The position numbers and the translations under genes are program-made. The notes beneath the pieces are model-generated. The model saw only the letters and a list, made by a program, of their open reading frames with translations, searched no databases and was not told where the DNA came from. Below are positions 4,904 through 50,810 of a stretch of DNA of 64,000 nucleotides, in pieces (position 1 is the stretch's first letter; each line of letters starts with the position of its first letter). Origin of the DNA: Eledone cirrhosa (lineage: Eukaryota); the NCBI GenBank assembly GCA_964016885.1, contig OZ024745.1, positions 55,118,001 to 55,182,000 of the forward strand. The letters run 5' to 3'.

Positions 4904-5254
4904 TTATTAATATACATTCTTACATTGTGTATTATTAATTTCATTGAATATTAATGAGAACATTTAGGAATAGATCGTATATACTAGTTACAAATTAATA
5001 GAATACTTTATAATACAAATCGTTCCTGATCGACTAAAATGACAAACCGTTTGATTACAAATGATTTGAAAGAGGCACATGAACATTACCGTAATGTATG
5101 TCTAAACGTATAAACTAACAGTAATCTTTAATACCATCCATGGACAAAAACGGACACAAATCACCGGTAAACATATAAATCTGCAGCGATCGATGTAGTA
5201 AAAGCAATGATCAAGAGCTCACCAAAATGTTATAGGTCATTAAACAATAAATGT

Positions 5255-5441
5255 AATAATTGTTTATACATTTGGCACAAGGACAGTAATTATCACAGTA
5301 TATTACTGGTACTTTATTTTATCGACCCCGTAAGGATGAAAGGCAAAGTTAACCTCGGCGAGATTTGAACTCAGACCATAAAGGGACGTAACTCTTTGCT
5401 GCAAAGCATGGCGTCCGACCCTCTACCAATACTTCCAATCC
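5255..5441 (-). mobile_element. SINE family A
   Basis: TACTGGTACTTTATTTTATCGACCCCGTAAGGATGAAAGGCAAAGTTAACCTCGGCG...GCATGGCGTCCGACCCTCTACC. Confidence 0.9.
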
Positions 5442-6949
5442 AAGGGCATATGTACTTTTAAACATATCTGGTGTGTGCAATAATAGCCTGCTTATATCAG
5501 ATAAATATTTAAGGATATTGGGACTACATACTTCTTCACATACACAATATATATCCAATTGTAAATATTGTTTCCATTGAATTCCCTAGCAAGCAGTTTA
5601 TATATAGACAGTTGAAATATGATAGCATACGTTTTAAACAATTCCATATAGTATTGTTTGCCAAAGTGATTCAAAAGTGTACAACCTAAAACTGAACGCT
5701 GTTTATGTATTCAATAAAATCGTAAATTTACCTCTCGATCAACATCGGTCACCAGCCAAAGGCAATATCAATATTTATAAGAGAATAAGTGAAGTTCGTG
5801 CCACGTAAAAAAAAAAATCCAAGTAGCAATAAAATCAAGTCACGGGCACGGAAACAAGGGTTCAGTTTTTGGCACCGCGTTTGACATTAATTCTTATGAG
5901 CTTCAGGCAATTGTACATTTCTATTCAATAAATGTTAACCTTAAATTATTAATTAATGCCATTGACTTCATTTCAGATATAATTTAGTTTTCGTTTCAAG
6001 CAGAATGAAACATTTAAGTGGGGTAAAAGAAGCTAATAATATGTTTTTATTATACTTACAAATTTATTGTTATTTACATTTTTTACATTCTTATTTATTA
6101 TATACGCTTTCCTTGTAATGTTTAGTTGTTAAAGTAACAGCCGATTGAAAACCAAATGTATGAAATCAAACAGACTTGCTTTATTTTAAGTTGTACATTA
6201 CATATATTATAAAGTTTGGCTATTATACAGAAATCCGCCTTTCTCACATATAGAGTGAGGAGGTAATTGTATAAAAGCAATGCAAACTTCAGAAGGAGTG
6301 GTAACTCAAAGGATGAGTTGGCATTATGTGAGATGGCTTCTAGCAAAAGGTTGTACACATTTAAATCTGGAATACAACTAATTAACAAACATATACATGC
6401 TTTGCCCATGTTTCACTTTAACTTTCCACCTGTCTCTTCCAGAGCCAAGTAGCCTGTGGGATATAGATGAAGAAATAGCATAGCATAATATATGTCTGTG
6501 TGTGTGAATGTGTGTGTGTATATATACATCTACATATGTATACAAACACACACACATCATATATATATATATATATACTTACTTAAAATTTAATGATATC
6601 TTTATATGCAAGCGAAATGTGAAATAAAATGATAACAATGTAGGAGGCTTTCGTCAGTGAGGAAGAGCGAGAGTAAGAAAAATGTTAATACATATATATA
6701 CGTATAATGTGTGTGTTTGTGTGTGTATTTGTGTGTTTGTGCGCGCGCGTATGTGCGCGTGCATGTGCGCCTAAATTTAGAAGTAGATAGATGTACAGAA
6801 ACGTTTATATGCATCACATCACATTCATAATTTTAACATTCGTGTATACAGTAAATAATTTTTTATACAGTTAAAAATGTATTATTTAGAAATAATATTT
6901 TGTTGCCATTCCTTTTTACAGGTATATAAATACATATATGTACGCCGGC

Positions 6950-9829: not shown

Positions 9830-9985
9830 ATAATGGTTTCTGATTTAGGCACAAGACCAACAATTTTGTGGGAGGGAACATTCGATTAAATCAACCCAAG
9901 TGCATTACTAACACTTTATTTTATCGACCCCTTAATGATACAAGACAACGATAACCTCGACAGCATTTGATCACAGAACTATGAG
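9830..9985 (-). mobile_element. SINE family A, diverged (a further decayed copy at ~10110-10300)
   Basis: TTTATTTTATCGACCCC core and TTAGGCACAAG tail. Confidence 0.7.
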
Positions 9986-16129: not shown

Positions 16130-16285
16130 AGTGATAAATCGACCCTAGTGCATTACTGGAATTTTCTTTTATCGACCCCGTTAAGGCAAAGCTAACCTCT
16201 GCAGAATTTGAACTCAGAACGTAAAGGGCCATAACTATGCCACAAAGCATGTGGTGCGACGCTCTGCCGTTACTGCCACTCCACC
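16130..16285 (-). mobile_element. SINE family A
   Basis: TTTATCGACCCCG...GGCAAAG...ATTTGAACTCAGAACGTAAAG. Confidence 0.8.
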
Positions 16286-17499
16286 ACTCTTATTATTATC
16301 ATTATTATAATTATTATAATTATTATAATTATTATTGGATTGAAAAATACATTAATATATCATCTTTTTATATATGTGAACTATATGCCCTTTCTATAGA
16401 AATCGTCAATGTAAATATTTTATTGACGTTCGGCACTTTTCTTTCATTTACCAACAGCATATGCGTTCTTACTGTTAGCTTGCTTTCCAACAGAGTTACT
16501 CCAGATGTTATTGATTTCCTTGTGAGGTTTTGTTTCTGCGGATATAATTGGTATGTGTGAGACATTCTTTTACGTTGAAAAGGCATTAAGCAACATAACT
16601 TTCAGTTATATACATACAAAGTGACGAATAATTTTATGTGTTCGGTTTCAAATATGTAATGTAGTATGCAGTGATCATTTAGTAAATTTCACGTATAAGT
16701 GTCTATGGCATTCAATTTTTGACACACTGCTGTCGAATGCAATTGAATCAAAGACAAATTTGAATTAATCCCGAAAACAATTAAGTGAAATGATTCGATG
16801 AGTTTTTAAACTTAATCCATTCACAATCCCAGATTTTCCTGAAACACTATTTCTAACATCTTGCCTGAAGCTGCATATTTAATTTTCTCCCACTTGGCCC
16901 CGATGAATTCCTTACACTTACACAGTTATCATTAAATAAATTAGAGAGCATTGAATCCCGCTCTATCCTATTAGCAATAAAATGGAATAATAAAAAAGAA
17001 TGTGAGGAAAATGTATTAGAAAGAGAATAGGAAGAAAAATCATAATAAAGAGAATATGAGATAAAAGAATAAAGAGATGAAAACGAAAAAGAAGAAAAGG
17101 GAGAAAGAGCAGAAAAAGATACAGAAAAAGGAGAAAGGGAAAAAGAAAAAAAAGAAGACAAGACGAAGAAAAACAAAAGAAAAATAATAAAGATTTCTAT
17201 ATTCACAGCACGGGCTTACGAAAGAACATCTTTTAAAAAACTCCTCTTCCTATTTTAAATGATGTTAATAGCTTGAAAAATGCAAAATAGAATACGCTCC
17301 AGTATCATGGTCTAGAACTACAATGATTGCTAGCTCTCGGATTGGAGTATGGAACTCGCCCTAGCTAAACAATTCGCAACACCTAAAACCTACCCTCACA
17401 ATAAAGCAATCAGTCGTGTCGGGTGGAGCAAGACAAACAACTCATCCGCAAATGCGATATCCTCGTGCTGCTATATGGCCATGGGCATATAGGAAATAT

Positions 17500-20595: not shown

Positions 20596-21090
20596 CTGCA
20601 TATCCACCGGCGTTGTGTATGCTCTCCGGTGTTCCCTTTGGGGGTCTTTATATGTCGGACAAGCGGGACGCCGTATGGCGGACCGTTTTGCTGAAAATTT
20701 GAGGGACATACAACTCGGTTTGGATACTCCTGTCGCCCGTCATTTCTGTTCTCCTGGTCATTCTTCCCTACATGTTTCAGTCCTGGGTGTCCTTTTACAT
20801 TATGGATCACAGGCCTCGCGCACCAGGACTGAACAAAGTCTGATTCACCGTCTTGGGTCCTATTCCCATCTTGGACTCAACTCACCTCCCCAATTTCTCT
20901 AATACCCCGTCCATTATCACACCCCTAGTTTCCTATCGCTTTCTCGTTGTTCATAGCTTCGAGTGTGTGTGCGCACACACTCTTTTACTCACATATATAC
21001 ACACATTTCTTCTTAGCTTCGTACGAACCTATAATAACACACACACACACACACTCATGCTTTATTTCTGTTTACCTTTTACATGTATAT
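20591..21090 (+). mobile_element. 5'-truncated Penelope-like element: GIY-YIG endonuclease end plus 3' tail
   Basis: CISTGVVYALRCSLWGSLYVGQAGRRMADRFAENLRDI...PVARHF...EQSLIHRLGS...GLN; homologous to 41450-41729; bounded by (TA)n on both sides. Confidence 0.9.
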
Positions 21091-21292
21091 ATATATATAT
21101 AGAAGAAGTTAGTATGCCCGTGGGTACTAAGTACCCCCGGAAGTACATAGGTTGTCTATGATTTAAGGTTGTTCTATGGTATCAATTTGACATACCAGAA
21201 CTATAATATTAATATAAGCAGAACAAGCAAAATTCAACCAATTTTTTAAAATAAATTAAAAAATATAATTTAAATATTTACCTATTCTTTTC

Positions 21293-21374
21293 GCCCTTAC
21301 CGATCGGTTTCGCCTTGTAAAACACTAGAAATCCAATGGATTTCTAATGGAAAATCAAGGCTCATCAGAGAAGC
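21293..21374 (-). ncRNA. Type I hammerhead ribozyme, long helix II insertion
   Basis: Minus: GCTTCT-CTGATGA-GCCTTG...CAAGGC-GAAA-CCGATCGG-TA-AGGGC; palindromic helix III; GUA site. Confidence 0.85.
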
Positions 21375-21774
21375 ATTTTCCTTTCCTAGGGCTAAAGACC
21401 CAGGAACGATAAAATATATTGTTATCTGCCAGCTAGCACAGATCCAAAAGGCCGAAAAATGACCTGTACGCGAACTACCCGAGGTGAAAGCGGGAAAAAC
21501 ATAGACGTGTTGTCTATCTCGTTACTAAAAATAGCAGCTAAATAGAAACAACAGATTTGTTCTCAACATAACGGAGTGTAATAGAAGAAGTTAGTATGCC
21601 CGTGGGTACTAAGTACCCCCGGAAATACATAGGTTGTCTATCATTTAAGGTTGTTCTATGGTATCAATTTGACATACCAGAACTATAATATTAATATAAG
21701 CAGAACAAGCAAAATTCAACCAATATTTTAAAATAAATTAAAAAATATAATTTAAATATTTACCTATTCTTTTC

Positions 21775-21856
21775 GCCCTTACCGATCGGTTTCGCCTTGT
21801 AAAACACTAGAAATCCAATGGATTTCTAATGGAAAATCAAGGCTCATCAGAGAAGC
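21775..21856 (-). ncRNA. Type I hammerhead ribozyme (second repeat unit)
   Basis: Same sequence as 21293-21374, shifted by 482 bp. Confidence 0.85.
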
Positions 21857-22137
21857 ATTTTCCTTTCCTAGGGCTAAAGACCCAGGAACGATAAAATATA
21901 TTGTTATCTGCCAGCTAGCACAGATCCAAAAGGCCGAAAAATAACCTGTACGTGAACTACCCGAGGTGAAAGTGGGAAAAACATAGACGTGTTGTCTATC
22001 TCGTTACTAAAAATAGCAGCGAAATAGAAACAACAGATTTGTTCTGAACATAACGGAGATAATAGAAGTTAGTATGCCCGTGGGTACTAAGTACCCCCGG
22101 AAATACATAGGTTGTCTATGATTTAAGGTTGTTCCAT

Positions 22138-22139
<2 letters not shown>

Positions 22140-22224
<85 letters not shown>
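22140..22224. repeat. (TA)n microsatellite (another at ~22435-22542)
   Basis: Direct reading. Confidence 0.97.
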
Positions 22225-22545
<321 letters not shown>

Positions 22546-22757
22546 ATCGTTTAAATTTGGTGGTTTACCACTGGATAGAAATGGTCATTCTGCAATGTTA
22601 ACCTTGACGTAAAATGAGTAAAGCACTCGACGTCATGCAACTTATCCATCTTCAATGTTGAATCATGTGGATGGTGTGGGAATCGGGTAAATGTATTATA
22701 AACTGAAATGACAGGAGGCCAAATATGGTGAATATTCTTAATTTTTTATTACTGTAA

Positions 22758-22814
22758 ACACTATGCACATTTCAGTCACCAGGTTGTGTAAGACCCGTTG
22801 ACCTCATCAGGTGT
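22758..22814 (-). ncRNA. Type I hammerhead ribozyme
   Basis: Minus: ACAC-CTGATGA-GGTCA...TGACT-GAAA-TGTGCA-TA-GTGT; near-palindromic helix III; AUA site. Confidence 0.75.
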
Positions 22815-23342
22815 AAATTGCGTAACAGGTGTATACCAACGAAAAATCAGAGAGAAAATGTCCGAGACGGACGTGGTAGCATGCTGCTACATTGCTCGCC
22901 CGCCCCTCTGAGTGAGGTTATTTAAAAAAAATCTTTCCTGCTAGTTTGCTAGCGCGTCGGGGGGGGGGGGGTACTTACCCCAAACAAACAGGGCCCAAAG
23001 GTTCACCGATCTTCCGAGTAATTACGGTTTACCGTAGAAAAAGGAAATTACAAAGCACTGAAGGGGGTAGACAGACCTAGTCGCCCCGAGTGCAGCTTGA
23101 AGGCTATCCATAGTCAGCCGGTGTCGTAACATGGTATGTATTCGTAGCCATTCATGCTAGTGAAGTTAGTGCTAAAGCCAAGAATTATCAAAATTGAAGC
23201 TACGTAGGATACAATGAGATAAGAAAAACTATACACGATCCCCTGCTATCCTAATAACAGCAATGGGGTAAGATTCCATAATATTGCCTTATACTTTATT
23301 TTATATATATATATATATAATAAAGTAAAAGGCAATACTATG

Positions 23343-23388
<46 letters not shown>

Positions 23389-23392
23389 ATAT

Positions 23393-23920
23393 TAACTACC
23401 AAAAAAAAGTTCTCGCTCTACATTGCTGAATACAATATATGTAATCTGAGTTTTTCGAATATTGATAATAATATTCGATTCGTTTGCAATTATGCAAACA
23501 CCCTCTTTTAAGCCATGTTAGTAGAATGAGCCCCTCATTCTTGCTCTTGTGATGGCATGATACAGTTTATTATTCTCCTGCCAACTGTCAGAGCTAGTAA
23601 AAAATAGATGATATTTTCTAAAATATACAGTGACTAATCAGCCCGATTAGCATATTAACAGACTCGCTGATCAGTCAGATCTGCATATTACCAGATGCAT
23701 TGATCACCCAGATTTGCATATTAGCAGATAGGCCAGTCTGTTTACATGCAAAAACAAGAGCAATAATGAGCGGCTCATTCTACTGAGATGGCCTAAAAGC
23801 GGATGTTTGTAAAATTGCAAACGTATCGAATATTATTATGAATATGCGAAAAACTCAGATTGCATTTATTGTATTCAGCCATGAAGAGCGATGGCTTTTT
23901 TTATTTTGTCGGGGTAGTTA
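23393..23920. mobile_element. MITE/foldback-like element with ~155-bp imperfect terminal inverted repeats
   Basis: 23393-23550 is the imperfect reverse complement of 23755-23920 (ends TAACTACC...GGTAGTTA); non-coding interior with short subrepeats. Confidence 0.8.
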
Positions 23921-23959
23921 TTTGAATATGGAAAAGCCGGCCATTAATCGCTCGTATAC

Positions 23960-24310
23960 ATTAGACTGCCTGGCCTATCTTCTGATATGCAAATCTGGTT
24001 GATCAGTGGATCTGTTAATACACAGATCTAACTGGTCAGCCAGTCTGCTAACATGCAAATCAGTCTGATCAGTCATGTATATTTTAGAAAATATCATATA
24101 TGTTCACAAGCTCTGACAGTTGGCAGGTGAACAGTGAGCTGTACTGATGAAGGCTGATACCCAGAAACATTATTGTCTGCAGTTCTGTTCGCATGCCAAC
24201 ACAAGAGCAAGAATGAGGGGCCCATTCTACTAACATGGCTTAAAAGAGGCTGTTTGCATGATTGAAAACGAATCGAATATTATTATCAATATTCGAAAAC
24301 CTCAGATTAT
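23960..24310. mobile_element. Second, inverted partial copy of the 23393-23920 element carrying a hammerhead
   Basis: Reverse complement of ~23440-23740 with an extra ~48-bp segment at 24144-24191. Confidence 0.8.
24129..24190 (+). ncRNA. Type I hammerhead ribozyme with long bulged helix I
   Basis: GAACA GT GAGCTGTA-CTGATGA-AGGCTGATACCCA-GAAA-CA TTAT TG-TC-TGCAGTTC TGTTC; 8+5 bp helix I, GUC site; helix II weak/atypical. Confidence 0.7.
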
Positions 24311-24334
24311 ATTTATATATATGTATATAAAGAG

Positions 24335-24665
24335 TAATGTGTCGTGATCCACTTCTGTCACGAATGAACAATGGATTGACAATTAGAATGTTTACCTCCG
24401 AGGCATAATTCAGAGCAAGCTTGATTGTAGAAATCCAGCAGTCGCCAATGCATAACATCTCCCCTTTTCACACAACCGATGCTGTCAAACGGAAACAATG
24501 GTCGATACAACATGACACCAGTGTCGCCACAACTCGTTTCTATAGCTAAGTAAACTGGAGTAACGCGAAATAAATTGTTTTGTTCAAGGACACAGCGCTT
24601 CACCCGGTTTGTGATTTGAACTTACCTCAGGACTGCAAGGCTTTCGTCGATCCACTCGACCACAT
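24335..24665 (-). mobile_element. SINE family B
   Basis: Minus: GTGGTCGAGTGG...GTTCAAATC...CTGTGTCCTTGAACAAAAC...CTCCAGTTTACTTAGCTATAGAAA, homologous to 1448-1600. Confidence 0.7.
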
Positions 24666-25574
24666 CTGAATCCAGTTCCTGGTCCCGATCCATCACTGTT
24701 TCTGTTGATGGGGGACGGAATTACGATTTGAATTTCCATGATCTGAACTGTTTTAATATTTAACTAACGCGAATGCTTGTTTCCAAGGTTGTTTTCTTAC
24801 TTGTAGAAAGAACAGCAAGCGAGTTGGAAATTCAATAAACGTATGTTATATCAACTACCAGAATATATTTTCTAGGGTCGAAGATATTAACAGATCCTTT
24901 ATCCCATTGCTTTATTTCAAATCAATGAAATCTGCAAATGAATCCACGTGTATGTTTCCTTGAAATTATATCAGAATTTATAATTAAACCAAAATATCAT
25001 AGATTGCAAATTTTAACCTATTCCATTTTCAAATGTGCTGACACTTAAAATCCAAACCTTTAAATCTATAATGTAAGATCCGATTGTCGTTACATGTATA
25101 AGATGCTGAGGCAATTCCCGAAATCTCGCATATATTGTTTAATCACATCTAAGCACCTAGCTTAGATTATTTGTGATAACACTAAGGCCATACATGCTTC
25201 TTAATTCCTATGGACTCAAACATGTTAACATTTCATTATGAATTGTTTAATTGAAGTTAAAGGCACTAATATCACGGGAATTCATGTAATTTCATATAAT
25301 TCTCCCGTATTCTAACGTATTCATAATTGATAATCTCTACTGTGATGACATGACATATATCCATCGTATGCCGTATCATTTATTATTCAATTATTAAGCA
25401 ATTATTGACTGGAAAACATATTTAATTATTTATTTCATTATGCCACTAGATAGTATATTACATTTAAATATATAGTAATTTAAATATATTACATCTACGA
25501 TATATCAGTTCTAAAAGTAATATTGGCAGATTAAAAAGTTGTAAGTTTCGTATTTGTATTCTTAAATCAACTCA

Positions 25575-25730
25575 AGGGCGGTAAATTGTTAGTGCCACTA
25601 CATCGTCGGACAAAATGTTTTGCGGTGGTTAGTTATGACTTTCTGCATTGCGTTCAAATCACACAGTGGTCAACTTTGCTATTCACTCTTTCGTGCTCGA
25701 TTAAATAAAGCACCACTTTATTACTGACAT
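25575..25730 (+). mobile_element. SINE family A, diverged
   Basis: GGGCGGT...GTTCAAATC...CAACTTTGCTATTCACTCTTTCG.GCTCGATTAAATAAAG. Confidence 0.6.
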
Positions 25731-26259
25731 GTTTGTCCTCGAATTTACTCTTCCCAAATTTGTTTGATTGTTGTTACTGTTAGAAAACACTCTCTTAACA
25801 TTAAGTACATCAGCGTATTTTGTTGTTAATCATGGTATCTATACTTGCGTAATAATTATTTTCATATACCTTTATGTTTTTAATTCGTAACATTCCATTA
25901 TCTCCTTTGAACCGCACAGCAAGTAGTTCATATGTTGATTTCATTATCTTAGACATACACCTGTCTATTTTGTATTCTGTCATACACAATTACTCACTAA
26001 GGAAGAAAGGAAGAATGTTTCTTAGGCAGAATCGCAGGATCACAAACACATATATGCATATGTAAACACGTGTGTTTGTGTGTGTGTATGCATGTATATG
26101 TGTATATTTGTGTGTTGGTATGACACTCTCTCTCTCTCTCACAATATATATATTGTATATATATATTGAGTACTCTGGCGTATTGAGTACTCTGGCGCGT
26201 TATGGTCCACCTGGTATCTTATCACACTCTCTTTATATTTATATATATATATATATATA

Positions 26260-26770
26260 TAGTAATAATAATAAATTTGACGACTAAAATCCAAAGAGGG
26301 CTCAATAAGGATAAATATATATCAAATATATAAGAACCGTAAAGCAAATATTTATTAAAATAACAGTTTAATCAAATAATCGCTGCTTTCACCCTTAAAG
26401 GGATCTTCTGAAACTAACAAAGTCAATCTGTAAACGCAGAAGTGGATATTTCAAAAAACGTTGCAACCGAAGGAAGACAGGAAGACGATACTTTGGTTCG
26501 TGGAAACGTTCCCTGGCAAAGAACGGGGAAAAACGAATATAATACGCCATTAATAGGAACGGTGAAAAACAATTACGCGCAAAGACAGAACCATGTTTAT
26601 GGTAAAAAAGAGGTCGTAGACTAATGTTCTCTTAGGTGGTTCATAGAGACGTTCACTGGCAATGAACGAAAAAAAACGAAGATAATACGTCATATGTGGA
26701 GCCTGGAGAACAATTGCACGCAAAGACAAAACCACGTAAATGGTATAGCAGAAGTCGTAGACTAAAACTC
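26260..26770. repeat. Dispersed repeat (family of 1901-2082) with an internal ~140-bp-period duplication
   Basis: ACAATT.C.CGCAAAGACA.AACCA.GT..ATGGTA...GTCGTAGACTAA at ~26570 and ~26710. Confidence 0.7.
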
Positions 26771-28299
26771 TAACTCGGACACCGAATGAATTTCCGCTTC
26801 AGAGTTAAGAACAAAGTAAATAAATACAATACAGAGGTTATAATAAATTGTTGCAGTTCAAGCTTGATGCATTCATTTGAAAAGGAAATACATTCGTCTT
26901 GTTTTACTTTCAGCGAAAATGTTAATAATTTTCTCTTTAACCCATGCAAATGCATTTAGTCATTCAGCATTCATAGTGCTCCTTAAAAAAGATTTTATTC
27001 CTACAGTGTTGAAAACCAGAATTGTCAAGAGGATTTGTATCTGTTTCATAAATTTACTTAAGAACACTATCTAGATTATTTTCCAAGATAAATTTCAGCA
27101 GCTTAATTAATTTACAATATCCATGCATATCGGATCGACTATGGAATAATTTTAGTTCAGTTTCAAGATTTTCTTTGTCAATCATGAGATATGATTCAGT
27201 GGTCAGTAATATCTCTTCTGTAGGCACTTCATTCTTAAAACCAGTGAAGCCTTTCCTGTTCAGAAAATTTAGAAGCTATGAAGTGTTTAGTGAAAGAATA
27301 TCTGTCAATTGTATCTTGTAGAGAATGGACGTGTAATGCTGACGTCCATATGCTTCTTGAGAATAAATACACGTTGTGGTGATCTAGAGAAGAATCTTGG
27401 AATAGGCAAAATGTTAGAGAAAAATATTCTTACGTTCAGGGTAATACTTGCTGCATTAAATATCACGGTCCTTTTTAACCTTCATGTTATGCTCATTTAT
27501 TGAAGGTCTGTATGCTTCACTACGCTTCTCCTTAATATTTACGTTTCATAAAATTGACAGTAAAACCACATATTCCACAAGCTAGTTTGACTTATCATGT
27601 TTTTCATGCTTTTCTTTGATTTTGTTTATATTTCTTAAACGGTCTTTTGTCCACATTTCATCACCCCCAAACAGCAAACACGGGAAGCAAATCAATGCAT
27701 TTTTATCTTCACAGCTGCAGGGATAACTTTTCGTTGGTACCATTCAGAATTGAGCTACGAATATATCTTTCGTTGTTGCTTATTCCTGGCTGAAATATTT
27801 GAATATTAGGTGTTGAACTACTAAATTATCAAATCTCTTTATATATATTAGGACAATACGACAAATTAAAATAAATCTGAAAATAAAATTGCAAAAAATA
27901 ATAGAAAATACACTCAGAGGTGATTTTTATTAGTTACATAGGACCCAATTTTGATGCTAACTATGGTCTAGATTGGGGCTACCACGTTAACAAATCGATA
28001 TGTTGCATAAATATAATTGGAGTTGAAAAGTTTCGCTTTTGCGCAAATGCTATTTTCTGACATATATATAGTATCTTGTGATACGTCAGGCTTGTCGCAT
28101 GTAGCTAAGGTTTACACAATCGTAAAACAAACAGAAAATATGAACAATCATATATCAATATATACATATATTATTTCCGCGAATATATATCGCGGATACT
28201 ACTGCAAGGCAGACATTTCATACAGAAAATGAAACATTGTAAATAAAGATTATTTCGAAACAAAGACATTTAAACTTTAAACGCCAAATACCACCATCT

Positions 28300-29110
28300 T
28301 AAAAAATACATCAAAACACCACAGCTGAAACACATACATATTCATCTATGTGAAATACTGAATAGATTATGTGCCAGATTCCGAAATTGGTCTATCCTTT
28401 TTGCAGAAGTGCACAGAGAATGGGAGAATATGGGAACACTTTCTAAACTATGTACGTCACCATTCAGGATGCAAAACAAAATACATGTCGGAAATAATTT
28501 ATCATAAATACCCGCCACCGATTTCCAAAAACGTTCATATACCTCATCCTCAATGATACCTCCATGATTTCCTGGAAAATAAACCCCTACAAAATACAGG
28601 CTGACAATAAATATAGGAAGCACAAAAAATAGTTATCAAGTGTGTGCTTGATCCCAACGAAAGGTCTCCACGTGATATAATGATTTGGAAAGTAAGAACA
28701 GATAATATTGGCCAAAATGAGTTTAATGGCTGAAAGAAATAGTGGTGGGACCGGAACAGAAAAGTAGTATCAAATTAAATTGTGTTGTTTAGGACCACAT
28801 ATTGAAATCATTCCATATCATAGAAGACAGCGGTCCAACGAATGTACTGCATAATTACAAGATAAATAGGATATCTACGGACCTGCAATGAGGTGCTGGG
28901 AAGGTCCATACATATGTTGGAGCTACAAGATATTTACCAGCATGTTTGACCTAATGTTTGATTGAAACTGAGCAACAAACGACCATGATAATTTTCAAGA
29001 TCTATTTCACATATGTTAACATTTAACCAACAGCTAGCTAAATGCGCAAGATGTGGCAACAATATTGTTTTGCAGCCTTGACACGAAGGAGGTCGGGTAC
29101 ATTACAGTAA
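28300..29110 (+). mobile_element. Decayed RLE-type LINE 3' end (zinc knuckle / restriction-like endonuclease)
   Basis: KC...HHSGC knuckle remnant in ORF 28371-28556 and RDIMIW (cf. RPDIVIW) near 28670; ends at (TA)n. Confidence 0.35.
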
Positions 29111-29202
29111 TATATATATATATATATATATATATACTCAGCAAATAACACACGAACGCATACATACGTACGCAAAGACACACACACACACGCACACACA
29201 CT

Positions 29203-29277
<75 letters not shown>

Positions 29278-29699
29278 TTATATACTATAAGAATAGGAAA
29301 CAGGGATTCAGTGTTGCGTCATAACATATATAATAACATATTGCATATGTTTCTCTATCGATCAGCTCGAGGCAAGATCTATTATAGATCGCACCTGACT
29401 CTGTAATCGAAACTTCGTCTGATATGCTTAGTATATGAGATCGTCTCCGATACAACTATATATATATAGGTATGTATATCTTGATAGTCATATTCATATA
29501 CATATATGTGAGTGTATGTGTAAGGGCATATGTGGCGTGTGCGCCTGCATTTGTAACAATAACGATTAACATATATGGGCGGATTTAACTCCGGCTTCTT
29601 CTCATTTGTCGACTGGCCCAAGTCACCTTATTTAGCTAAAATCTACACTCTATTTTCATTTGTCGATTTTCTTCAATAGGTTATCGACATTCACTTTAG

Positions 29700-30400
29700 T
29701 ATATCAAATGTTCTGAGATCAAATTCAAGTTCTTTGGCTTCTTATATTCTCTCCCTCTTGAAGCTTTGTTATATGTTCTGAGCTTTGGGTTCATCTGCCA
29801 ATGTCACACTGGAAATCTGCGCCGATGTCTTCGAACTGCAGTGTGGCGCAGCGAGTGTTTTGAATATTACGTTTAACCTTGTACTGCCAGGTCGAAATCT
29901 TCCTTATGTCGTTCAGCGGAAATCGATGAATCGCGCCATTCGTTTGATTGTAGCTGTTATTTTCGATATATCAGTCTCACGAGGAGCATATATTTATACC
30001 TTGATCGTGACATTATAGATTACACTTACACGGCATCTAACTCCCGATCCAGGTACCCATCTTTCTGTGGAGAAGTCCCTAACACCACCGTGTTTGATAA
30101 TTCGTGTCCTGGGGTCATTACCCCAAGATGGGAATGTCACTGGTTCATTGTAATATCTATTGGTCCCTCATAAGCAACGAGGCATTTACTTCCAGAAGTA
30201 GTGAAAGAAGAGATACTCCAATATGATTGACAAGCTGCACACTGTACGACGACCACGGGTTAAAATTATGCTGAGGTGATATATATACGGTTGTGTCTAG
30301 CGTGGGACAATTCAGACATGGATTTATCAGCCCATTTCGTAGTGAGATTGACTATACTAATCGGAACTTCTTTCGGTCTTTATAATATGTACGTATGTAC
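29700..30400 (-). mobile_element. Decayed RTE-like RT fragment
   Basis: Minus strand GVSLLSLLLEV (cf. RGISLLSLPGKV) near 30190-30220. Confidence 0.35.
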
Positions 30401-31844
30401 TAAACAATAACCAAGCCTTTTCATATCTTCACGACAGAAACAGATAGCATTGGTCTTCTTCTCTATGTCTGCTTATCCAATAGAACAAGGTATTGCGCTG
30501 TAGTTCTACAACGATCTATCATAACGTTTATCACACCCACTCTAAGTATGGTAACAATTTATTCATTTATTCAAATGTGATATATCTAGGATTGCATAAT
30601 CAATTGTGTTTGTCCATTTAACATAGTAGTATGTGATTTTGAAGAAAATATATTCGAATCTCTAGCAGGATCTTAACTATATGTTTTGGGAAAATATAAT
30701 TTACGGATGCATGTCGCACTGATTGTGTTCTCCATTCACTATCATCACGTACATGACTATGTTTATGCATACATAATATTTATCTAATCAATATCATGCA
30801 CATATACATTCGAGAAGTTTATATTTATGGATATATGTAATAAATTGCATGACAAAATGGTTTATCTGATTATATATATCACTAGGGCTATTTAGAAATG
30901 TGTAAGCCATTCAAAAGTGTGTAATGTCTAATATAGAGTAGGGCTCATACTGGAAATAAATTATTTAGTGAAGAACACGCATAGCATTCATATAGAAATA
31001 CTAATTCGATTATTTAGGCTGAATAACTCAACAACTATATAAGGTATTTGAAAAGAAATACCAAATATATATATTATTGTTTCTTTTATTATAATATTAT
31101 ATAGATTTCTGGAAACTGTTACAATACATACTTATATTAGATTTATGGTGAGTGTGAACATCACAGCAGATAGAAAGCGGAATATATTCATGCTGTAAGA
31201 GGGAATCACGGTATTTGTGCGCTGGTGAATAGTGTGTTATTGGCACCGATTCAAAACACTGGGTTACGATGACCCTGTCAAATTTAATCGAATTGAGTAA
31301 TGGCAAACGAAATTCTCGCCAATTGATCAGCGTTAAATAAATGAATTGTATTCTCGAGAGAATGAGAATTGAATCCTTCACAAGATCTGTAATTCAGTGA
31401 AATACCATAACTATCACATCTTGGATGTAATAAACACCTTTCAGTGGACACCGACTTGACAATAACTTTCCGCACATCAATGATTTACTCTCCAATCATG
31501 TCTCGTGAATTTTGAGTTTTGATTGGATGTTGATAAAAGATGTAAGCCGACATGGGAAAATAAGCGTTGCAGTAATGCAGTACACTAACCTCCTTAGTAC
31601 TTCTTCAAATAGAATATCTGAAGCACAATCGTGAATTTATTTAATTTGCGTTATTATCTTCATATTCTCTCAATATGTAATATCTTTTGTAATGAAGTTG
31701 GTTTTGATGTACGAAATATATAAAACCTATTTCTTGTGTGATGTATATTCTTGCACTTGATTTCCAGAATCCTATTCATTTGGATATTTTCTAAAATGGT
31801 ACTAGTATTTGCTCACACAAGACGCAAATATAATATGAGAAAAC

Positions 31845-32580
31845 ATACAAATATTTTCGTGCCAACCCTTACGTATGGTCTTCAATATTTGACAATGACA
31901 GAAAGCGTCTTTCGAGTAACGTATGCATATATGTAACATATGTATAATATTTCTCTTAATTTCGAGTAAATTTCTGACCGGCCAATTTCCTGTAAGGTTG
32001 TAAAAGAAAATAAATTGTCATCCCTTGAATCACAAGAATGTTTTGATAATTTTGAAGATGCCAGCTATCGCAGCCTTTTGTAGTCTATGAATTAGGTAGC
32101 TGCGTTCTTTGTCCACATGTCCAAGTTCAGGCATACTTTGGTCCAGACGGATTGGTATATAACCTGTCTCTCCAATAATAATGAGTATGATGCTGAAGGT
32201 ATATCTTGGATACTGAATCTAAAAACCCCTCATCAATGGTCCGTAAATGTCCTACTTCTCATGTATTTTTCTTACAACGTTGATATCAATTGGGCAGCTG
32301 ATCTCTACCACAGAGCACTTTTTTCAATGTGTAGCCCCAAAGAACAATATCGAGCAGGTTGTGCTTTCATTTGGTGGCAGCTTTTATTTGCAGGTTCCAC
32401 CAGTATTCCTAGTTAAAGTTTCTAGTAACACTAAGAAGCTTGCACGATCGAGAATACGAACAGCTGAAATGGGATTCCTCCGAGAGGTCTTTGGAGTAAC
32501 GTTACTCGATAGAGTGCCTAGCTCGGAAATCAGAAAGTCACTCATGGTAGACCTACTACCTCTCTGAATTCAGAGGATCA
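31845..32580 (+). mobile_element. RTE LINE C-terminal fragment in two pieces (31845-31920 and 32445-32580)
   Basis: IFVPTLTYGLQYLTMTE, then RSRIRTAEMGFLREVFGVTLLDRVPSSEIRKSLMV; these motifs are adjacent in RTE ORFs. Confidence 0.7.
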
Positions 32581-32584
32581 GAAC

Positions 32585-34700
32585 CTTTGTAATGGGTGGT
32601 GGATTCTCTAAATGAAGCATTGCCAAAACATGATTCTGCAAATAGCGAAGAGAGTTTGGAAGTGTCTGTGAATACCTCACCATTTTGGTCATATATCACT
32701 AGCTCTTGTTTCGTTTTGGTGGGTTTGGATTTGATCATTTAGTTGGATATGCTCCATATGTCACCCATAGGCTCTAGGTTAGCGTTGCTAGCCCAGAAAT
32801 CATTTTTGGCTTGTTTTCTTAGCCGTTTAAACATTTTCTTTATGTTCTCTATATTTTTCAAATTGGAATCTGTAGTGTGGTATTTCAATTTTTTAAATGA
32901 CTGAGTCATTTCATTTATTGGTTGTGTTAGTTCTTCACTCCACCATCCCTTATTGTAGTTGTTATCATTATTGCTGTTATTTTGATTTCGAACGGAATAC
33001 CTGAAAGGAACTTTCTCAGTAATTGTATCCTCTATTTTGTTGACAAATAATTGAAGGCTTTTTTTTTAGCTCTTCAGGTTATTGGTCATTGTAAAATCTG
33101 TTGTTGAGTGATAGTTCTGCTTTTAAGTAATTAGTAAACTTAATCCAGTCAGTTTTGAGAAATTGATATTTACTTAATCTAGGCTTTATTTGGTGCGTTT
33201 GACAATAGCTCAGATTTTCATTGGTTTTAGGAATTTCAATATTAAAACTCTTGGTGATATGATGCACATTGTGGCTTAATTCCTAGTTTTCTATAAAGGG
33301 AGAGGCTGGGAGAGAAGAGCACACATTGTCTATTGTTGATGTTCTGTTGTTAAAATGTCGGTGGGTAGGGGAGTCTGGTATTGTATGAATAATAACGTTG
33401 TGTTTATTCTTAACCTCTAAGAGATATTCTCCTTCTTATTTGATGTATTTCCTGATTTTAGTATTATTGAATGTCTGATGTGCATTGAAGCCCTGAAAGT
33501 AGCATTTTGCTTTGTGGATTAGATATATCTAGGAAGTTTTCCATTTTTATTATTGTCTCTGTGATGTTTTGGGGGTTATAAATATTTACTACCTGGTGTT
33601 CATAAACGCAATATATATGGGGTTACAGTCCATTTTTATTATGTGTAATTTACAGATTAGTTTTGATCTAATCAGTGAGGCAACCTGATGCCCCATGATA
33701 CCATGTATTAGATATAAAAATGAAATTCTGTTAAGTCATGTAGCAGGGGTTCCTGAAAGAAGAATATGTCAAATGTTGAGCCATAACATTTTAAATAGTT
33801 TTTTTATGTGAAGGAGCAATTTTCGCACTTGTGATTTAAAATGAAGGCTGCCACTCTGCTCCCTTTCCAATCTCCATTGAGATTAGTGTACCCATGATTG
33901 AGTAAAGAATATTGGAATTGCTTGTCCACCAGTTCAATGTTGATGCTGCCGTGGATTTATTGGCTGTTGATTTTATTTTTATTTATTAGGAATCTCAGTG
34001 ACTGGAATTTGTAACCTAAAATATTTGTGGATAGGGAGTATTCATCTATTGTGATCACAATTCGGTGTGAGGGTTGGATAAGAATTAATCCACAATCTAC
34101 AAAGATTTCCACAATTAGGTGCTTAAAACTTTCCTGTAGGTATTTAGTTATTGTTACTGTTAATCTTTCGAATCTGTTTTCTACTTTTATTAGCTGTATA
34201 TCGTCTATTAGTATTCTGGTTATGTGTTTCTCTGAGAGACACTTATTAATTGTGGAGTACCATTTGTCATTGTTTTGGAGAACAAGGTGCTGGATGAGAT
34301 TTAAATTTGAAAGATATGTAGCTGTCCAGTTTATGTTTATCCCTGGATAGGAGGTTCTGGTTGTGTTTTGTTTAATTCATAACAGTACTTCTCATGTTTG
34401 CTGTTGCTGTATATGGCTTGTTTTATTTCCATCAGATCTTTTGAGTATCTGATTGGTTGTTGTGTTTAATTAACTCCTTTAATGCTGCTATGTCTTTTTC
34501 AATTTCGTTTAAGTTGGCCATCACATTCATTTGGTCGGATAGTGTTATTGATGTTGTTGGTGGTTATTCAGTGCTTCTGCTAACTTTATTAATCTCACTG
34601 AGGCTTCTTGGCCGTTGTTCTGATTTGCATCAGAATACCCGCCATAAGATGGAAGGTCATATTTGGTGTATTCATTGTGGATTTGTTTTCTGAGGTTTTG
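32585..34700 (-). mobile_element. Decayed I/Jockey-like LINE 5' half (ORF1-like region plus APE endonuclease)
   Basis: Minus strand PDSPTHRHFNNRTSTIDNV (APE PT...S.ID motif, ~33325-33385), then KTDWIKF and a ...WWS linker. Confidence 0.55.
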
Positions 34701-36300
34701 ATTTTATCCGCTTAGTTTTTTTTTTTTATTTATTTGATGTTATGTGTTTACATTCAGGAGTAATATCCTGGGATAAACTTGTAAAAGATCGCACGTCTGA
34801 TATAGTATGTATAAATGTTTTAAACTTTAAAAAAATATAATGGAATATCCGAAACTAAACATGAGCAAATAAAAAACATGAACATATCATTTCTAATAAA
34901 CCAATGTCAGTATACAATAATGGAATGGCTGTAAGTAGAATACGTTTGAGAAAAGGTCTATTTCGGCAGGATTCAGTGTTAAAGAACAACCACACTAGCA
35001 AAATTATTCGTTTAATTACCTTTCCCGGGAAGAACAAAAAGTACATTTCTGCTGTATTTAGTATGAACACTTCAATCAAAAGCATTAACATCTGCTTCGA
35101 AACCAATAAAATCTGTAACAACTTTTTACATTTCTACTAATAATCACGAGTGTGTTGTGTGGGGTTGCTAATTATTTATGCAATTATCTCTAACATCTAC
35201 ATGTTCGAATATGAATGAAACTCTATTTAACATTAAACTGACTTTTCTGAAACTTTAATATTGATTTTAAAAGTACAATAAATATGGCTTCATTTCTTCG
35301 ATATAAATTGACCTACTTTTTCAAAGATTTGAGCGATTAAAAAAAGTTATATCTATAAATATATAGATTTATATTTATACATAAAATATTATAGATTCAT
35401 GAATTGAAATGAAGAAACAAAAATTAATAACACACAGCTATTGGCGAATTCAAATCAAACAAGTTTATTAAGTCCTGCAGGGAGCATGCTTCGCGAAAAC
35501 AAAGATTTCCGGGTTTTGTCTCCCAAATTAAAATATATGATTATAGCTCTAATTTCGTTAGAAAATATTAAAATAAACTGATATTTTTTTCATTGTATAT
35601 TTTCTTTTGTTTACTATGAAACATATTTTCTTTAATTCAAGATAAATATACTTACTCATATTGTACGTCTATTTTAAAGGCAGCTTTCTAAAATGTGGCT
35701 GTCATCTATAGTAAGCCAAGTAACACGTAAATGTTTCCTGGTTGGTTTTAATAATACAGCGTAATTAAAATATCGGGGACTCATATAAAAGTATACAAGA
35801 ACTATTAAAAAAAAATCATTACATACGATTATGATAATGTATTTTGAACACATCCAAGATTACTGTTTATCGATTAAAAAAGCAAAGACGCAATTCTCGT
35901 TTCTACTTAATTTTAGCAGACATCATATTAAAAATGAAGGTGCTTTTAACTTAGAAAATGGATTAAATGTCTAGTTTCTGAATATATCTTAGCTTCCATC
36001 TGTTTTTTTATGTACTCATAAATTCCTTTTCATTTTGACCAAAAGAAAGATTAAGCGAAAAAGTTATTTTTTGTTCTTACTTCAAGTTGATTGATTCAAG
36101 ATTAAATATTGTTGTTATTTATATTATAGCTTTCCTAATCAATCCCCCTCCCAAAGCATGTCTAAAAACAGTTATCTCAACTTCTGGGGGATTATTGAAT
36201 ACATTTATGTTTGAAACGTTTGAGAATTAGAGATATGGTTATTGACATTTCATTTTAAATAAAAATTGTCTTATGTATGTATGCATACATACATACATGC

Positions 36301-36409
<109 letters not shown>

Positions 36410-36850
36410 TGACAGGAAGAAAGAAGGGAGATGGATGTTTAAAATAACATTATACGGAAAAACATTAAATGAATGAGCACTCAATACATGGTAAGGAATA
36501 GTTGAATTTCATCTTGTGAGTAGAAATATTTCAGTGCATGTTATGGTAAGATTAAACTTGTTTAAATAGGTTTATGTAGAGATACCGAGTTGTAAAATTT
36601 GGGAGTGTTGGAGAATCTCATTGTGACGTGGTAAAACAATATGTGTTTACGTGCGAGTATATAACTTTTTCATAGTATATTGTATTTCACAAAGGTAGAC
36701 AGTCACACATTTATACTGAATTATACCAATATACTTACTGTTCATACAACTTACACGCAGGCACAGACTGAATATACCACTTGCCTGTACGAGCAAACAA
36801 CAATTCACAAGATGAGTTTCAGCCAAATATTCAAGCAATACTCAAGTTAG

Positions 36851-36983
<133 letters not shown>

Positions 36984-38045
36984 TTCATATATACAATATA
37001 TGCTATTTTCCTTGAATGATCTGACATTAGGCGAGGAATATTAGAACAACAATTTTAATTTTACAATCTCCTAACAAATGTTCAAATCCCATTTAAATGA
37101 CAGCATATTATGCTTCGGGGTCCTGGTCTATTACGATATAACGAAAATATATGAGGATGTCAAAATAAAGGTTCATATCTGTTGAAGAAATGAATATCAT
37201 TCTGGTCTGTGGATGGTTAAGGAGAAAACACAACACAACACAGGGGAAAATAATGCAAACGCTATTACTACATTTTAAGGTGTATATCAATAAATCAGCA
37301 AATAGAATTTCAGTTATATTTATGCTTGCATTGAAATATTAAGTAATTTCACAACGATATGTATATATTATTTACTAGTGCTTTTTCGAAATACGATAGA
37401 CTTCATATATTTTACTGAAGTGTTTTGTAGAGTTACATAGGCTGATCACGTAAAATGATCATTCTTATTATCACCTTTGAACCAGCAGCAATGTTTTAGT
37501 AGTTGTTGTCATCTCATTCCATTTCTGACATCAATTATATTAGAAATTGTCCTGGGAAAAGGCAGCATAGACAGTTTTCCATCAAGATATACGTAATATA
37601 ATAATCTGAACTGTTGGCTTTATACACTTATGCATGATTTGTATCGTACAGACACATACACAGCAAAATTATGGAACCTGGGCATTTTCTTCCCTTTATT
37701 AATTATGTCTAATGTTACTTCTACAGAATTACTTGCAATAGTGTAACACTGTTTCTTGAATTGATACATTTCTCATGTGAACATCTATGTAGGGATGAAT
37801 GTATGACCGTATGGATGCTTTCTGATTATTCTATGTATTGTTCAAAATTTTAAGTTCAATTTTCGCGACCGTATGTAGCTTATGAAATGAAGCGCTGCTT
37901 TCATTCTCCAGGGAACCACATTCATAATATTTTTACTATGCTGGGGTTATATATCCCGTAGCTCCAATTATAATATGTATGAAACTGAACCTGTATTTTG
38001 GATATTAGATATGTAAAATCAACATCAATTGTCCGTAGTTATAAT

Positions 38046-38222
38046 TGTTTCTACGTTAGGCACAAGGCCAACAATTATCCAGTGCATTACTGGTACTTTA
38101 TTTTATCGACCCCGTAAGGATGAAAAGCAAAGTTAACCTTGGCGGGATTTGAACACAGGGCCGTAACTCTATACGTCAAATCATGGCGTCCGACCCTCTA
38201 CCAATACTGCCAATCCAACCTT
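38046..38222 (-). mobile_element. Young SINE family A copy with 18-bp target site duplication
   Basis: ATTGTCCGTAGTTATAAT at 38028-38045 and 38223-38240. Confidence 0.93.
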
Positions 38223-38349
38223 ATTGTCCGTAGTTATAATGTTATTTTATTATTCTTACTACGTTGAGTGGATGGCTGAATCCTACAAACGCATCTTTTT
38301 TACTCTATGGTGGGGATTCCGACTATAACTAGCCAGTAATATCTTGCCA

Positions 38350-38500
38350 GGCGGCGAATTAGCAGAGTCGATATAACGTCGGATAGAACGCTTAGCAGTA
38401 TTCATTCCGGCTCTCCTGCTCACTCAGAACAAATCCTCCTGCGGTCAACCTTTCATCCATTCAAGGTGAATGAATGAAGTGCCAGTCTAGTAATGGGATT
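38350..38500 (+). mobile_element. SINE family A, old copy
   Basis: GGCGGCGAATTAGCAGAGTCG...CTTTCATCCATTC...AAGTGCCAG. Confidence 0.6.
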
Positions 38501-39694
38501 AATTCTATCTCTATATCTCTTTCCCAAATCCATTCTCTCTCTGTAGCCTTCTCTGGGAGAAATATTTGCTATTTAGACTTGGAGAGGAGATGAGCTCCAC
38601 AAGGTTTAAAAGTGTCCTAGAAATCCTGTATTTCAATACGTCACCCCCACGATTTCCCGAGACGTTATGGGATAGAATACATCCAATATCTGATCAGCTG
38701 TATTCGCTTTTGGTCCGTATTTGTAAGAGCTGTAACATTGCAGTTGCCATTTGTTTACGTTAGCTCTCTTCTTTTCTCAATCTGCAATATGCAACGATGT
38801 GATCCGTCCATATCATCCTAGGTCCAGTCATTTTGGCATTATATGGTGCACAACTTAAGTTTCGAACGGGCCCATATGCGTAAGATGCGAAATCGTCCAT
38901 TCATATACTATTCCGCGGACGATGTATTATGATTGGTTTTAATGAATCTGATTATACTACACGCTAGACAACAATTTTGTACTTTTCCCAGAGCTACCAA
39001 ATCTAGACTTATCTGAAGAGATTTCACTCGCTTTGTCTTAACTTCATGGATGGTATGTGAGTATTGCTGAGTGTCAACTATTTCTCCAATTCACACAATA
39101 TCCTACAGATGATTGGTCCGGGGTTTCAGATTCGTCGGTCAAGAGCCCACATATATTACATCAAAGATCATATCAGTTAGCCATATACACACGCTTTTAG
39201 CAAGGTAGCTCTGCCGAGAACACTGAACCCGTAAGTAGTCGCGAACATTCAACATAATACTATATTTAGGTGTTCAGAATATAACGACATTATAAATTAG
39301 CCACATACGCTCATGATGGTACATTCGATCTAAAAGACAATCAAGGATGTAATTAATTCGCAGAACAATGAACTCCCCTAATTATATATAGATTTAAGTG
39401 CAACCTCATACGTGACTGTCTGTTGTTTTGCGATTATACACATATATTCACCACCACGCGCGCGCACCCACACACACACCAACACACAGGTACAAGTGAA
39501 CAGAAACACATTCACACAAATACTAACACTAACACACACATACGTATGCACAGGCACATACGTGAACACAAATATATTTAAGTAAGTTTGTGGGTGATGC
39601 AGGTTTGTAAATGTGTGCGCGTGGATATTGATATGCGTTCAGTAAAGAAGCACCATGCATACATTAAATTTCAATTATCATGTATCACTCTCTC

Positions 39695-42600: not shown

Positions 42601-43345
42601 TCCACTAAACCTCATAGGATTTTACCAACTTTTCAACCATCCTCTTACGGAATCACCTATATAACTCACCCACACACACACCCCAAAAACATTTTTTTCT
42701 CCACACGCCACCTACACCCACAACATGCTTAAACCCCACACACACGTGCTTTCCACCACATATTTACACCCTCAGCCTCCTGATTCCTCTCCCCCCCACC
42801 CCTCTATCCACACACGCACAGACACTCCGACCTACAACCCCTCCCACACACACCTCTTCCTGAACATGCAACCCCGTTCTTCCCCCAACCCTTACTTTCA
42901 TATACACACACACACACACGTACACCTACACACACACACCACCTTCAGCCCTCCCCGCTCGGACACCCCGTCTCCCTCTCCACACTCCACCCGCCACCAC
43001 CCCTACACACCCCACACCCTTCCACCACCAGTTTTACCCCCCTTTTAATTTCAGTTTATTTTGATCATGCTTTTATATTTAATTTTATTTCATTCCTTGT
43101 ATTTTGAACATGCTTTATTTTTATCTTTATTTTTTATTTTTTCATTCGCACCGTTTCCTTTCGCTATATGTCTCTCCACCACTCCCCTACACACCCTTTG
43201 AACTCTGTTCCCACACACTTCTCACCTGAGGAAGGGCTTATGCCCGAAACGTCGTTCCCCACCACCACCCCACTCTCCAGAGCGTGAAATTAATAAACAT
43301 TCGTTGTACTGCCTCTCTGTTTTGTTCCTGTTCAATTTTTTCCAT
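39695..43345 (+). mobile_element. Penelope-like element (Neptune-like), 5'-truncated, frameshifted RT + GIY-YIG, long C-rich 3' region ending in HHR and AATAAA
   Basis: DIVIKPADKGG; LDIKSLYT; GVAMGTRMGPNYANIFVG; YGRYIDDC; FLDI; IPYSQLLRIRRLCS; CxxxxCxxC linker (PCSRPRCNTC); NLVY/YVGQTGRRLADRF..H; coding ends TAG at 41729; ends at (TA)n. Confidence 0.95.
43222..43256 (+). ncRNA. Minimal hammerhead ribozyme in PLE terminal repeat
   Basis: AC-CTGAGGA-A-GGGC TTAT GCCC-GAAA-CG-TC-GT; palindromic ACGT helix III; helix I only ~2 bp. Confidence 0.7.
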
Positions 43346-43515
43346 TATATATATATATATATATTATTTACATAATACACAACATAAATAGCTCTGTACT
43401 ATCAGTAGGGCCCTCTTCTTTCCTTTACGGAAATACATAACACACAGACGACACAGACACACACACACACGCGCGCGCGCGCACACACACACACACGCGC
43501 ACGCACATACACACT

Positions 43516-43828: not shown

Positions 43829-43886
<58 letters not shown>

Positions 43887-43887
43887 T

Positions 43888-44228
43888 AGAAAGTGAGGTT
43901 TTTTCACAAAATGAAAAGAAACGAGGTCTCCTACACGACTGAAAGTATAAGGAAAAAAGATGAAATCGAAAATGCAATTGGTGTCTTTTTTTAAATGTAT
44001 TTATTTGGTTCCTTTAGCGGTTTCGCAGTTCTTGTGCTTTTCAAAAGTAGAATTGAGATGGAGGGTTTGTGGCTTTTCTCATATCTGGTGAGAGAAAAAC
44101 CACAAACCCTCCATCTCAATTCTACTTTTGAAAAGCACAAGAACTGCAAAGCCGGTAAAGGAATCAAATAAATACATTTTAAAAAAAAGACTCCAGTTGC
44201 ATTTTCAATTTCATCTTTTTTCCTTATA
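43888..44228. repeat. ~135-bp inverted repeat (43946-44080 / 44092-44228) of the 22225-22435 family, each arm with a mutated U3-A8 hammerhead
   Basis: Arms are imperfect reverse complements; TTGAAAA-GCAC...TGC-GAAA-CCGC-TA (minus) and TTGAAAA...TGCAAAGCCGGTA (plus, GAAA lost). Confidence 0.85.
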
Positions 44229-44279
44229 TATATATATATATATATACACTCACACACACACACATATATATATATAATT

Positions 44280-50734: not shown

Positions 50735-50783
<49 letters not shown>

Positions 50784-50810
50784 CACAAATCATCTCCTTA
50801 GATTGATAAC

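Follow-up and report, generated by a model that had tools for sequence, protein, structure and literature searches.

Known retrozymes and the 482-bp array

Retrozymes are a published and common class of element that is known from many animals. The metazoan non-LTR retrozymes (PMC7229834) are short non-coding tandem repeats of 150–450 bp units with a GC content below 50%, in which each unit carries one type I hammerhead and adopts a stable fold. They coexist with Penelope-like elements (PLEs), their palindromic helix III, of 1–2 bp with a small loop, is able to act as a dimer, and they were studied with RNA. A wider size range of 51–972 bp is given by Li, Clavereau and Pollet 2026 (10.64898/2026.07.22.740005), where families are tied to PLE terminal repeats by sequence similarity. 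The pseudo-LTRs of PLEs likewise contain a type I hammerhead with a palindromic helix III and an adjacent short intron, and form partial tandems (PMC4209133, PMC2377424). PLE and newt hammerheads are known to cleave as dimers via a palindromic helix III (PMC7229834, PMC4209133), and PLEs are described as having a bias towards (TA)n, partial tandems and 5′ introns that are retained (PMC2377424, PMC8557442). According to a 2020 review, no motif in animal retrozymes gives away which element mobilises them.

The window analysed here, a stretch of 64,000 nucleotides, contains an insertion at positions 21101–22142 (minus strand) that is built from 2.16 head-to-tail units of 482 bp, 478 bp and an 81-bp partial. 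In the sense of its hammerheads, the 5′ end of the insertion is 22142 and the 3′ end is 21101. TRF reported the repeat at 21099–22142 with a period of 482, 2.2 copies and 97% matches, and the spacing between units was 482 and 478 bp by self-BLAST. Units 1 and 2 differ by eight substitutions over 476 positions (21101–21576), none of them in the hammerhead, and by small indels at the junction. The unit is non-coding, with a longest stop-free stretch of 74 aa, and has 35% GC. TRF, self-BLAST and the unit alignment therefore all agree with the initial annotation, which had described about 2.15 near-identical non-coding units with a period of 482; its coordinates and hairpins are also correct, including the 7-bp hairpin GGGTACT-A-AGTACCC, which lies at 21122–21136 near the 3′ end of the insertion.

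Both flanks are TA repeats. At the 3′ end a (TA)8 run occupies 21086–21101, where letters of the unit merge with the run by microhomology, and at the 5′ end TRF and the sequence itself place a (TA)42 run at 22140–22224. Retrozymes that have a target-site duplication show one of more than 4 bp; because both flanks are (TA)n, a target-site duplication cannot be delimited. The predicted monomer between the two cleavage sites (21298–21779, minus strand) has 482 nt and 35% GC. Its predicted circular fold is branched, with 65% of the nucleotides paired and a z score of −3.7 (0 of 60 shuffles equally stable); the opposite strand gives the same fold z, so fold stability does not pick the strand.

The family to which the unit belongs was examined in public DNA runs, by comparing X1, X2, X6 and X9 with 20900–21590 at 80% likeness; seven of 11 runs contain part of the stretch. 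A repeat at 21028–21110 was skipped in this comparison, which puts the left junction outside its reach. Related copies were found in three organisms (A, B and C). In X1, 893 contigs match the unit and its 200-bp left flank, a contig count from which no copy number is derivable; the same holds for the summed X1 depths, which are about 1,200–2,500 over the hammerhead and 22,000–42,000 over 21140–21235, the shallowest of the listed X1 contigs having a depth of 5–9. Head-to-tail joints in X2 and X9 connect 21567, 21576, 21582 or 21590 to 21125, giving several junction variants in two organisms. Two of the 24 loose ends listed (161 more lie beyond these) are joined to (TA)n, at 21202 in X9 (60 reads) and at 21509 in X2 (one contig), and both differ from the ends of this copy. 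The unit belongs to a multi-copy, dispersed family. An absence of dispersed copies, which the initial annotation had held would speak against its reading, is contradicted by the 893 contigs and by the tandem joints and TA-joined ends elsewhere. A roughly ten-fold step in X1 depth near 21284 was considered as a sign of cDNAs stopping at the cleavage site and was set aside, since diverged relatives and AT-rich mis-mapping fit it equally and X2 shows no step.

One deep X1 contig (record 8) has one other letter over 21390–21545; at the four sites it spans where the units differ, it agrees three times with unit 1 and once with unit 2. Both units therefore bear private changes, as expected if they were identical at insertion. 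At 21143, nearly all relatives carry the base of unit 2.

The anatomy fits the published operational definition of a retrozyme. The two full units follow one another in tandem and each holds a complete type I hammerhead, the unit is a few hundred base pairs long, non-coding and below 50% GC, the predicted circle is stable and self-paired, the family is multi-copy and dispersed, and PLEs coexist with it as broken remnants. With every testable feature of the class present, we regard the array as a likely member of the metazoan non-LTR retrozymes, which are non-autonomous PLE derivatives of a known kind, and this supports the retrozyme reading of the initial annotation. The PLE context, the TA target, the candidate intron and the weakness of helix I, all described below, go beyond that annotation. 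Compared with the retrozymes of PMC7229834, the unit of 482 bp is larger, though within the range of Li, Clavereau and Pollet; helix III is a 10-nt palindrome, and helix II carries an extension of about 38 nt. The array also has a candidate intron and lies between (TA)n flanks, of which the cited parts of that description make no mention. The element is known from DNA alone, unlike those retrozymes. It differs from PLEs in its 482-bp period, in a hammerhead that is large rather than minimal and in the absence of an RT and GIY-YIG ORF within the repeat period, so that it does not qualify as an autonomous EN+ PLE. Two other assignments were rejected. A plant LTR retrozyme has type III hammerheads in LTRs around a separate interior, while the array is a pure tandem of type I topology. 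A viroid-like circular RNA with ribozymes in two polarities is at odds with a hammerhead on the minus strand only, other ribozyme classes having been checked by Rfam alone.

The hammerhead and its palindromic helix III

Each full unit carries one minus-strand hammerhead, in the order helix I 5′ strand, CUGAUGA, helix II with its extension, GAA, palindrome, GUA and helix I 3′ strand. The downstream copy (21292–21375) is predicted to be cleaved after 21298 and contains CUGAUGA at 21368–21362, a helix II formed by 21361–21356 and 21317–21312, and GAA at 21311–21309. The upstream copy (21774–21857), whose CUGAUGA begins at 21850, is identical, with predicted cleavage after 21780. The 6-bp helix II is capped by an internal loop and a hairpin, in place of a short loop; this 38-nt extension (21318–21355, minus strand) includes a 9-bp hairpin with arms at 21326–21334 and 21338–21346, and the fold has an energy of −21.7 kcal/mol. 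Helix III is a perfect 10-nt palindrome at 21299–21308, repeated at 21781–21790. The features of a type I hammerhead are all present, namely the CUGANGA and GAAA boxes, the A15.1-U16.1 pair, an NUH site, helices I–III and an open helix I. Helix I is weak in both hammerheads, with four contiguous pairs of which two are G-U. The motif search agrees with the initial annotation on the CUGAUGA/GAAA boxes, the 6-bp helix II with its hairpin, the 10-nt palindromic helix III and the GUA sites at 21298 and 21780.

A strict hammerhead descriptor (helix I at least 4, helix II at least 5, palindrome at least 6) gave six matches in the 64-kb window and none in each of 40 block shuffles. The Rfam hammerhead models gave no match at the gathering score or at E ≤ 10. 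Over 20900–22400, Rfam returned 12 matches at E ≤ 10, all under the gathering score and none to a hammerhead; the four alignments inspected rest on TA or AT-rich sequence. The long insert in helix II may explain the Rfam miss.

The natural variants of helix III form two symmetric pairs, and both preserve the palindrome. The changes 21301 C>T and 21306 G>A each account for 15.2 of a depth of 19.5 in X2, are carried by 22 of 53 and 21 of 50 reads, respectively, in X9, and also occur in X6. The changes 21303 A>T and 21304 T>A account for 3.82 of 19.5 in X2, all 32.2 of 32.2 in X6 and 7 of 50 reads in X9; in X2 and X6 this double change is represented by one contig each. These four are the helix III variants among the 40 listed of 168, none of them in X1, and asymmetric changes of the palindrome could lie among the other 128. 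In a monomer, the central pair 21303/21304 would fall in the loop of helix III; it is pairable only between two hammerheads. Such natural variation suggests that helix III is under selection as a dimer. Co-occurrence of the paired changes on one molecule is read from their equal contig depths, and each pair possibly goes back to one historical event; DNA strand-switching can also make palindromes perfect.

Elsewhere in the motif, the catalytic boxes show no variant among the 40 listed of 168. The variant at 21298 turns GUA into GUU, which is also a usable hammerhead cleavage triplet. With the variant at 21326, the minus strand has a U-G pair and the plus strand a mismatch, which at a terminal pair is weak evidence. 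Variants at 21289, 21290 and 21292, if on one molecule, would lengthen helix I in the relatives. A common variant at 21314 breaks the third pair of helix II unless its partner 21359 also changes, and 21359 is not among the 40 variants listed of 168.

Folding with ViennaRNA, whose energies omit the core and tertiary contacts so that the ranking alone is informative, gave −16.6 kcal/mol for the helix III duplex versus −0.9 kcal/mol for its hairpin. For a transcript of two units, the dimer-active fold is favoured by 4.5 kcal/mol over a pair of monomer folds. The active folds are disfavoured relative to the ensemble, lying 4.6 to 8.0 kcal/mol above it for the monomer and 14.6 kcal/mol above it for the two-unit dimer, and a local minimum is predicted in which the CUGAU box pairs with the 3′ half of the palindrome. 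The dimeric hammerhead proposed in the initial annotation gains support from the symmetric double changes and from these energies. Titles and selected passages of the literature describe neither TA-targeted retrozymes nor covariation of the helix III central pair.

A bolder and tentative reading is that the element has a built-in switch: the 10-nt palindrome might make cleavage dependent on dimers, so that multimeric transcripts would be cut, a monomeric circle might be locked by the predicted pairing of CUGAU with the 3′ half of the palindrome, and the mobiliser might be a Neptune-type PLE marked by TA targeting and the intron. If true, this would address how the circles of animal retrozymes avoid re-cleavage (an open question in PMC7229834) and which autonomous element moves animal retrozymes (an open question in the 2020 review). 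The more modest additions made by the locus are the support that natural variants lend to the dimer, and a TA targeting and candidate intron that point to a Neptune-type PLE as mobiliser.

Target site, candidate intron and origin of the array

The window is rich in microsatellites and contains several PLE remnants with RT and GIY-YIG pieces, all of those seen being broken. Such EN+ PLEs suggest that the host is probably an animal. A PLE-type GIY-YIG C-terminal piece at 20600–20902 (plus strand), a separate insertion next to the array, has 54% identity over 85 aa to the piece at 41469–41726. The latter lies within a broken PLE at 39874–43346 (plus strand), in which a DKG motif, RT, a CX4CxxC linker and GIY-YIG were recognised and which is called Neptune-like on these motifs. 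Its minimal hammerhead, at 43226, is followed after 92 nt by a TA run. The RT of the element matches Pfam RVT_1 with an E value of 0.0099, under the cut-off, and its Atlas look-alikes are eukaryotic RT-associated clusters. This is an element type that could supply the enzymes. A second broken PLE-type element, of a different family, is located at 44250–47255 (minus strand), with matches at 45–47 kb to RVT_1 (E 3e-07) and GIY-YIG (E 0.0023). BLAST found no similarity between the unit and the PLE ends in the 64-kb window, so a partner is not identified by sequence.

An independent array of the same form lies at 61120–62247 (plus strand), with a period of 471 and 2.4 copies that are 99% identical. 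At its 3′ end, 300 nt downstream of a hammerhead, it runs into (TA)n. That hammerhead is a compact type I, with a 7-bp helix I, a 5-bp helix II and a 6-nt palindromic helix III; its GUU sites are at 61476 and 61947, and the circular fold has a z score of −8.4. BLAST detected no homology between the 482- and 471-bp arrays. The 471-bp array appears younger and cleaner.

A TA run occurs within 310 nt downstream of seven of the eight hammerhead-like sites in the window, that of the PLE included, versus 17% of random positions; the cut-off was chosen post hoc, and one of the seven matches is a short internal run. A TA run upstream is found for two of the eight. Insertion bias towards (TA)n is known for PLEs such as Naiad and Hydra, and the CX2-5CxxC linker was proposed to mediate microsatellite bias in Neptune (Craig 2021, PMC8557442). 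The linker motif of the broken PLE at 39874–43346 is the one known from Neptune and Nematis. One window thus holds a Neptune-like PLE and two retrozyme arrays, unrelated to each other, with a common geometry in which the hammerhead is followed after 90–300 nt by (TA)n, and this ties retrozyme insertion to PLE target priming by mechanism, beyond co-occurrence.

The unit also has a candidate GT-AG intron of 81 nt at 21201–21281 (minus strand; second copy at 21683–21763), which starts 16 nt after the cleavage site. A donor-like AG/GTAAAT is followed by an AT-rich, AG-free stretch ending in TAG, the first AG being 81 nt on. Of 5000 shuffles of the unit, 173 contained a donor of the AG/GTAAAT type at any position. 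The two arrays share one 13-mer, which is this donor-like site, and 18 of 2000 shuffles reach at least 13. None of the solo hammerheads of the window, nor that of the PLE, has such a donor beside it; the candidate intron is therefore no general rule in the window, as donors adjoin the hammerheads of the two arrays only. In the 471-bp array, the donor-like site is just upstream of the hammerhead and would put the hammerhead inside an intron. In Drosophila virilis Penelope a 75-bp intron is retained in the promoter region, adjacent to the hammerhead (PMC4209133, PMC2377424); the end of that intron reaches into the 5′ side of helix I, whereas the candidate here starts after the cleavage site. Target, end geometry and candidate intron point to a PLE as mobiliser, and the link to PLEs rests on these three features, unlike that of Li 2026, which was drawn by sequence similarity.

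The reading that we favour, with a probability of about 0.7, is that the array is a non-autonomous PLE-type retroelement, inserted probably once into (TA)n by way of a dimeric hammerhead, a circle and PLE reverse transcription. A multimeric minus-strand transcript would be made and would be predicted to cleave itself through the dimeric hammerhead into 482-nt monomers, which a host ligase may circularise, by analogy with PMC7229834. The endonuclease of a PLE, presumably of the Neptune type, would nick a (TA)n tract, and the nicked TA repeat would prime reverse transcription. The ends and flanks suggest that this started at an internal AU-rich site and went through 2.16 turns. Neutral decay since insertion would account for the eight substitutions between the units.

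The DNA itself fits a linear multimer as template as well as it fits a circle. The last cleavage site is followed by a further 197 nt up to the 3′ end, and the insertion includes two intact sites, which makes the template a circle or an uncleaved multimer and not a cleaved linear monomer. The main rival, which we consider unlikely, accordingly has the same PLE derivative copied from a linear uncleaved multimer of a master array, with circles playing no part and a hammerhead of little or no activity. It accounts equally well for the internal ends and the 2.16 units, and helix I is weak in this copy. PLE hammerheads are slow in vitro (PMC4209133), and hammerhead-free non-autonomous elements of Chlamys are also multicopy head-to-tail insertions (PMC8557442). 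Cleavage was seen in only one of nine tested Xenopus dimer elements, the other eight giving none (10.64898/2026.07.22.740005), so that activity of the present copy is not to be assumed. Against an idle hammerhead, the intact catalytic boxes (among the 40 variants listed of 168) and the symmetric changes in helix III suggest selection on a working ribozyme, and circles were demonstrated for coral, mussel and axolotl retrozymes (PMC7229834).

That a solo fragment of a PLE terminal repeat was inserted once and then duplicated locally in DNA as a minisatellite, by slippage or unequal crossover, seems improbable. Amplification of PLE termini has been proposed as a route to tandems (10.64898/2026.07.22.740005), and solo hammerhead fragments that end in (TA)n are present in the same window; yet related copies in two organisms share the place of the tandem junction, in several sequence variants, the unrelated 471-bp array has the same TA-ended form of two units and a fraction, and the unit has no coding sequence next to it. 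In its size, its hammerhead and its stable fold the unit is also reminiscent of viroid-like or satellite circular RNAs, but an endogenised agent of this sort, replicating from RNA to RNA and captured by a host reverse transcriptase, is hardly credible given a hammerhead in one polarity only, a branched fold, a candidate spliceosomal intron and multiple copies in the DNA of three organisms. In a weak test, the exact degenerate hammerhead pattern had no match in viral or metagenome contigs. For the favoured PLE-mobilised retrozyme, the locus is a convenient test case.

Other repeats in the window

The solo type I hammerheads are found at 22543–22825 (minus strand), 50781–51150 (minus strand) and 56521–56730, each followed by (TA)n. 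They have an extended helix II and a helix III of 8–9 nt, which is a perfect palindrome in the first two; in the third it is imperfect, and this hammerhead lies within a 210-bp inverted repeat. Immediately beyond the (TA)42 flank of the 482-bp array, 22225–22436 (plus strand) belongs to a repeat family that ends in (TA)n and recurs as an inverted pair at 43886–44224, with 84% identity between the loci; the copy at 43950–44224 forms an inverted repeat. The hammerhead at 22225–22436 is a U3-A8 core variant, UUGAAAA at 22266, with its site at 22295. At 23402–24316 there is a complex repeat of about 350 bp, both tandem and inverted, and its hammerhead-like core at 24144 fails the descriptor.

The Neptune-like PLE at 39874–43346 shows an extreme strand bias towards C (GC skew of about −0.59 across 40–44 kb), and a 1.5-kb low-complexity 3′ region precedes its minimal hammerhead. 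Upstream of the 471-bp array, a short GC-rich hairpin at 60873–60903 is followed by CTAGT just before a TA run, which we take to resemble a Helitron 3′ end. No tRNA genes were found in the window, and a bacterial promoter scan, irrelevant to this DNA, gave chance level. A SINE-like dispersed repeat of about 150–190 bp is present in at least seven copies that are 71–92% identical (1231–1385, 5253–5443, 9896–9978, 16135–16291, 38038–38218, 49574–49761 and 59413–59575). An inverted pair of 413 bp, 99% identical, is formed by 52541–52953 and 53487–53897.
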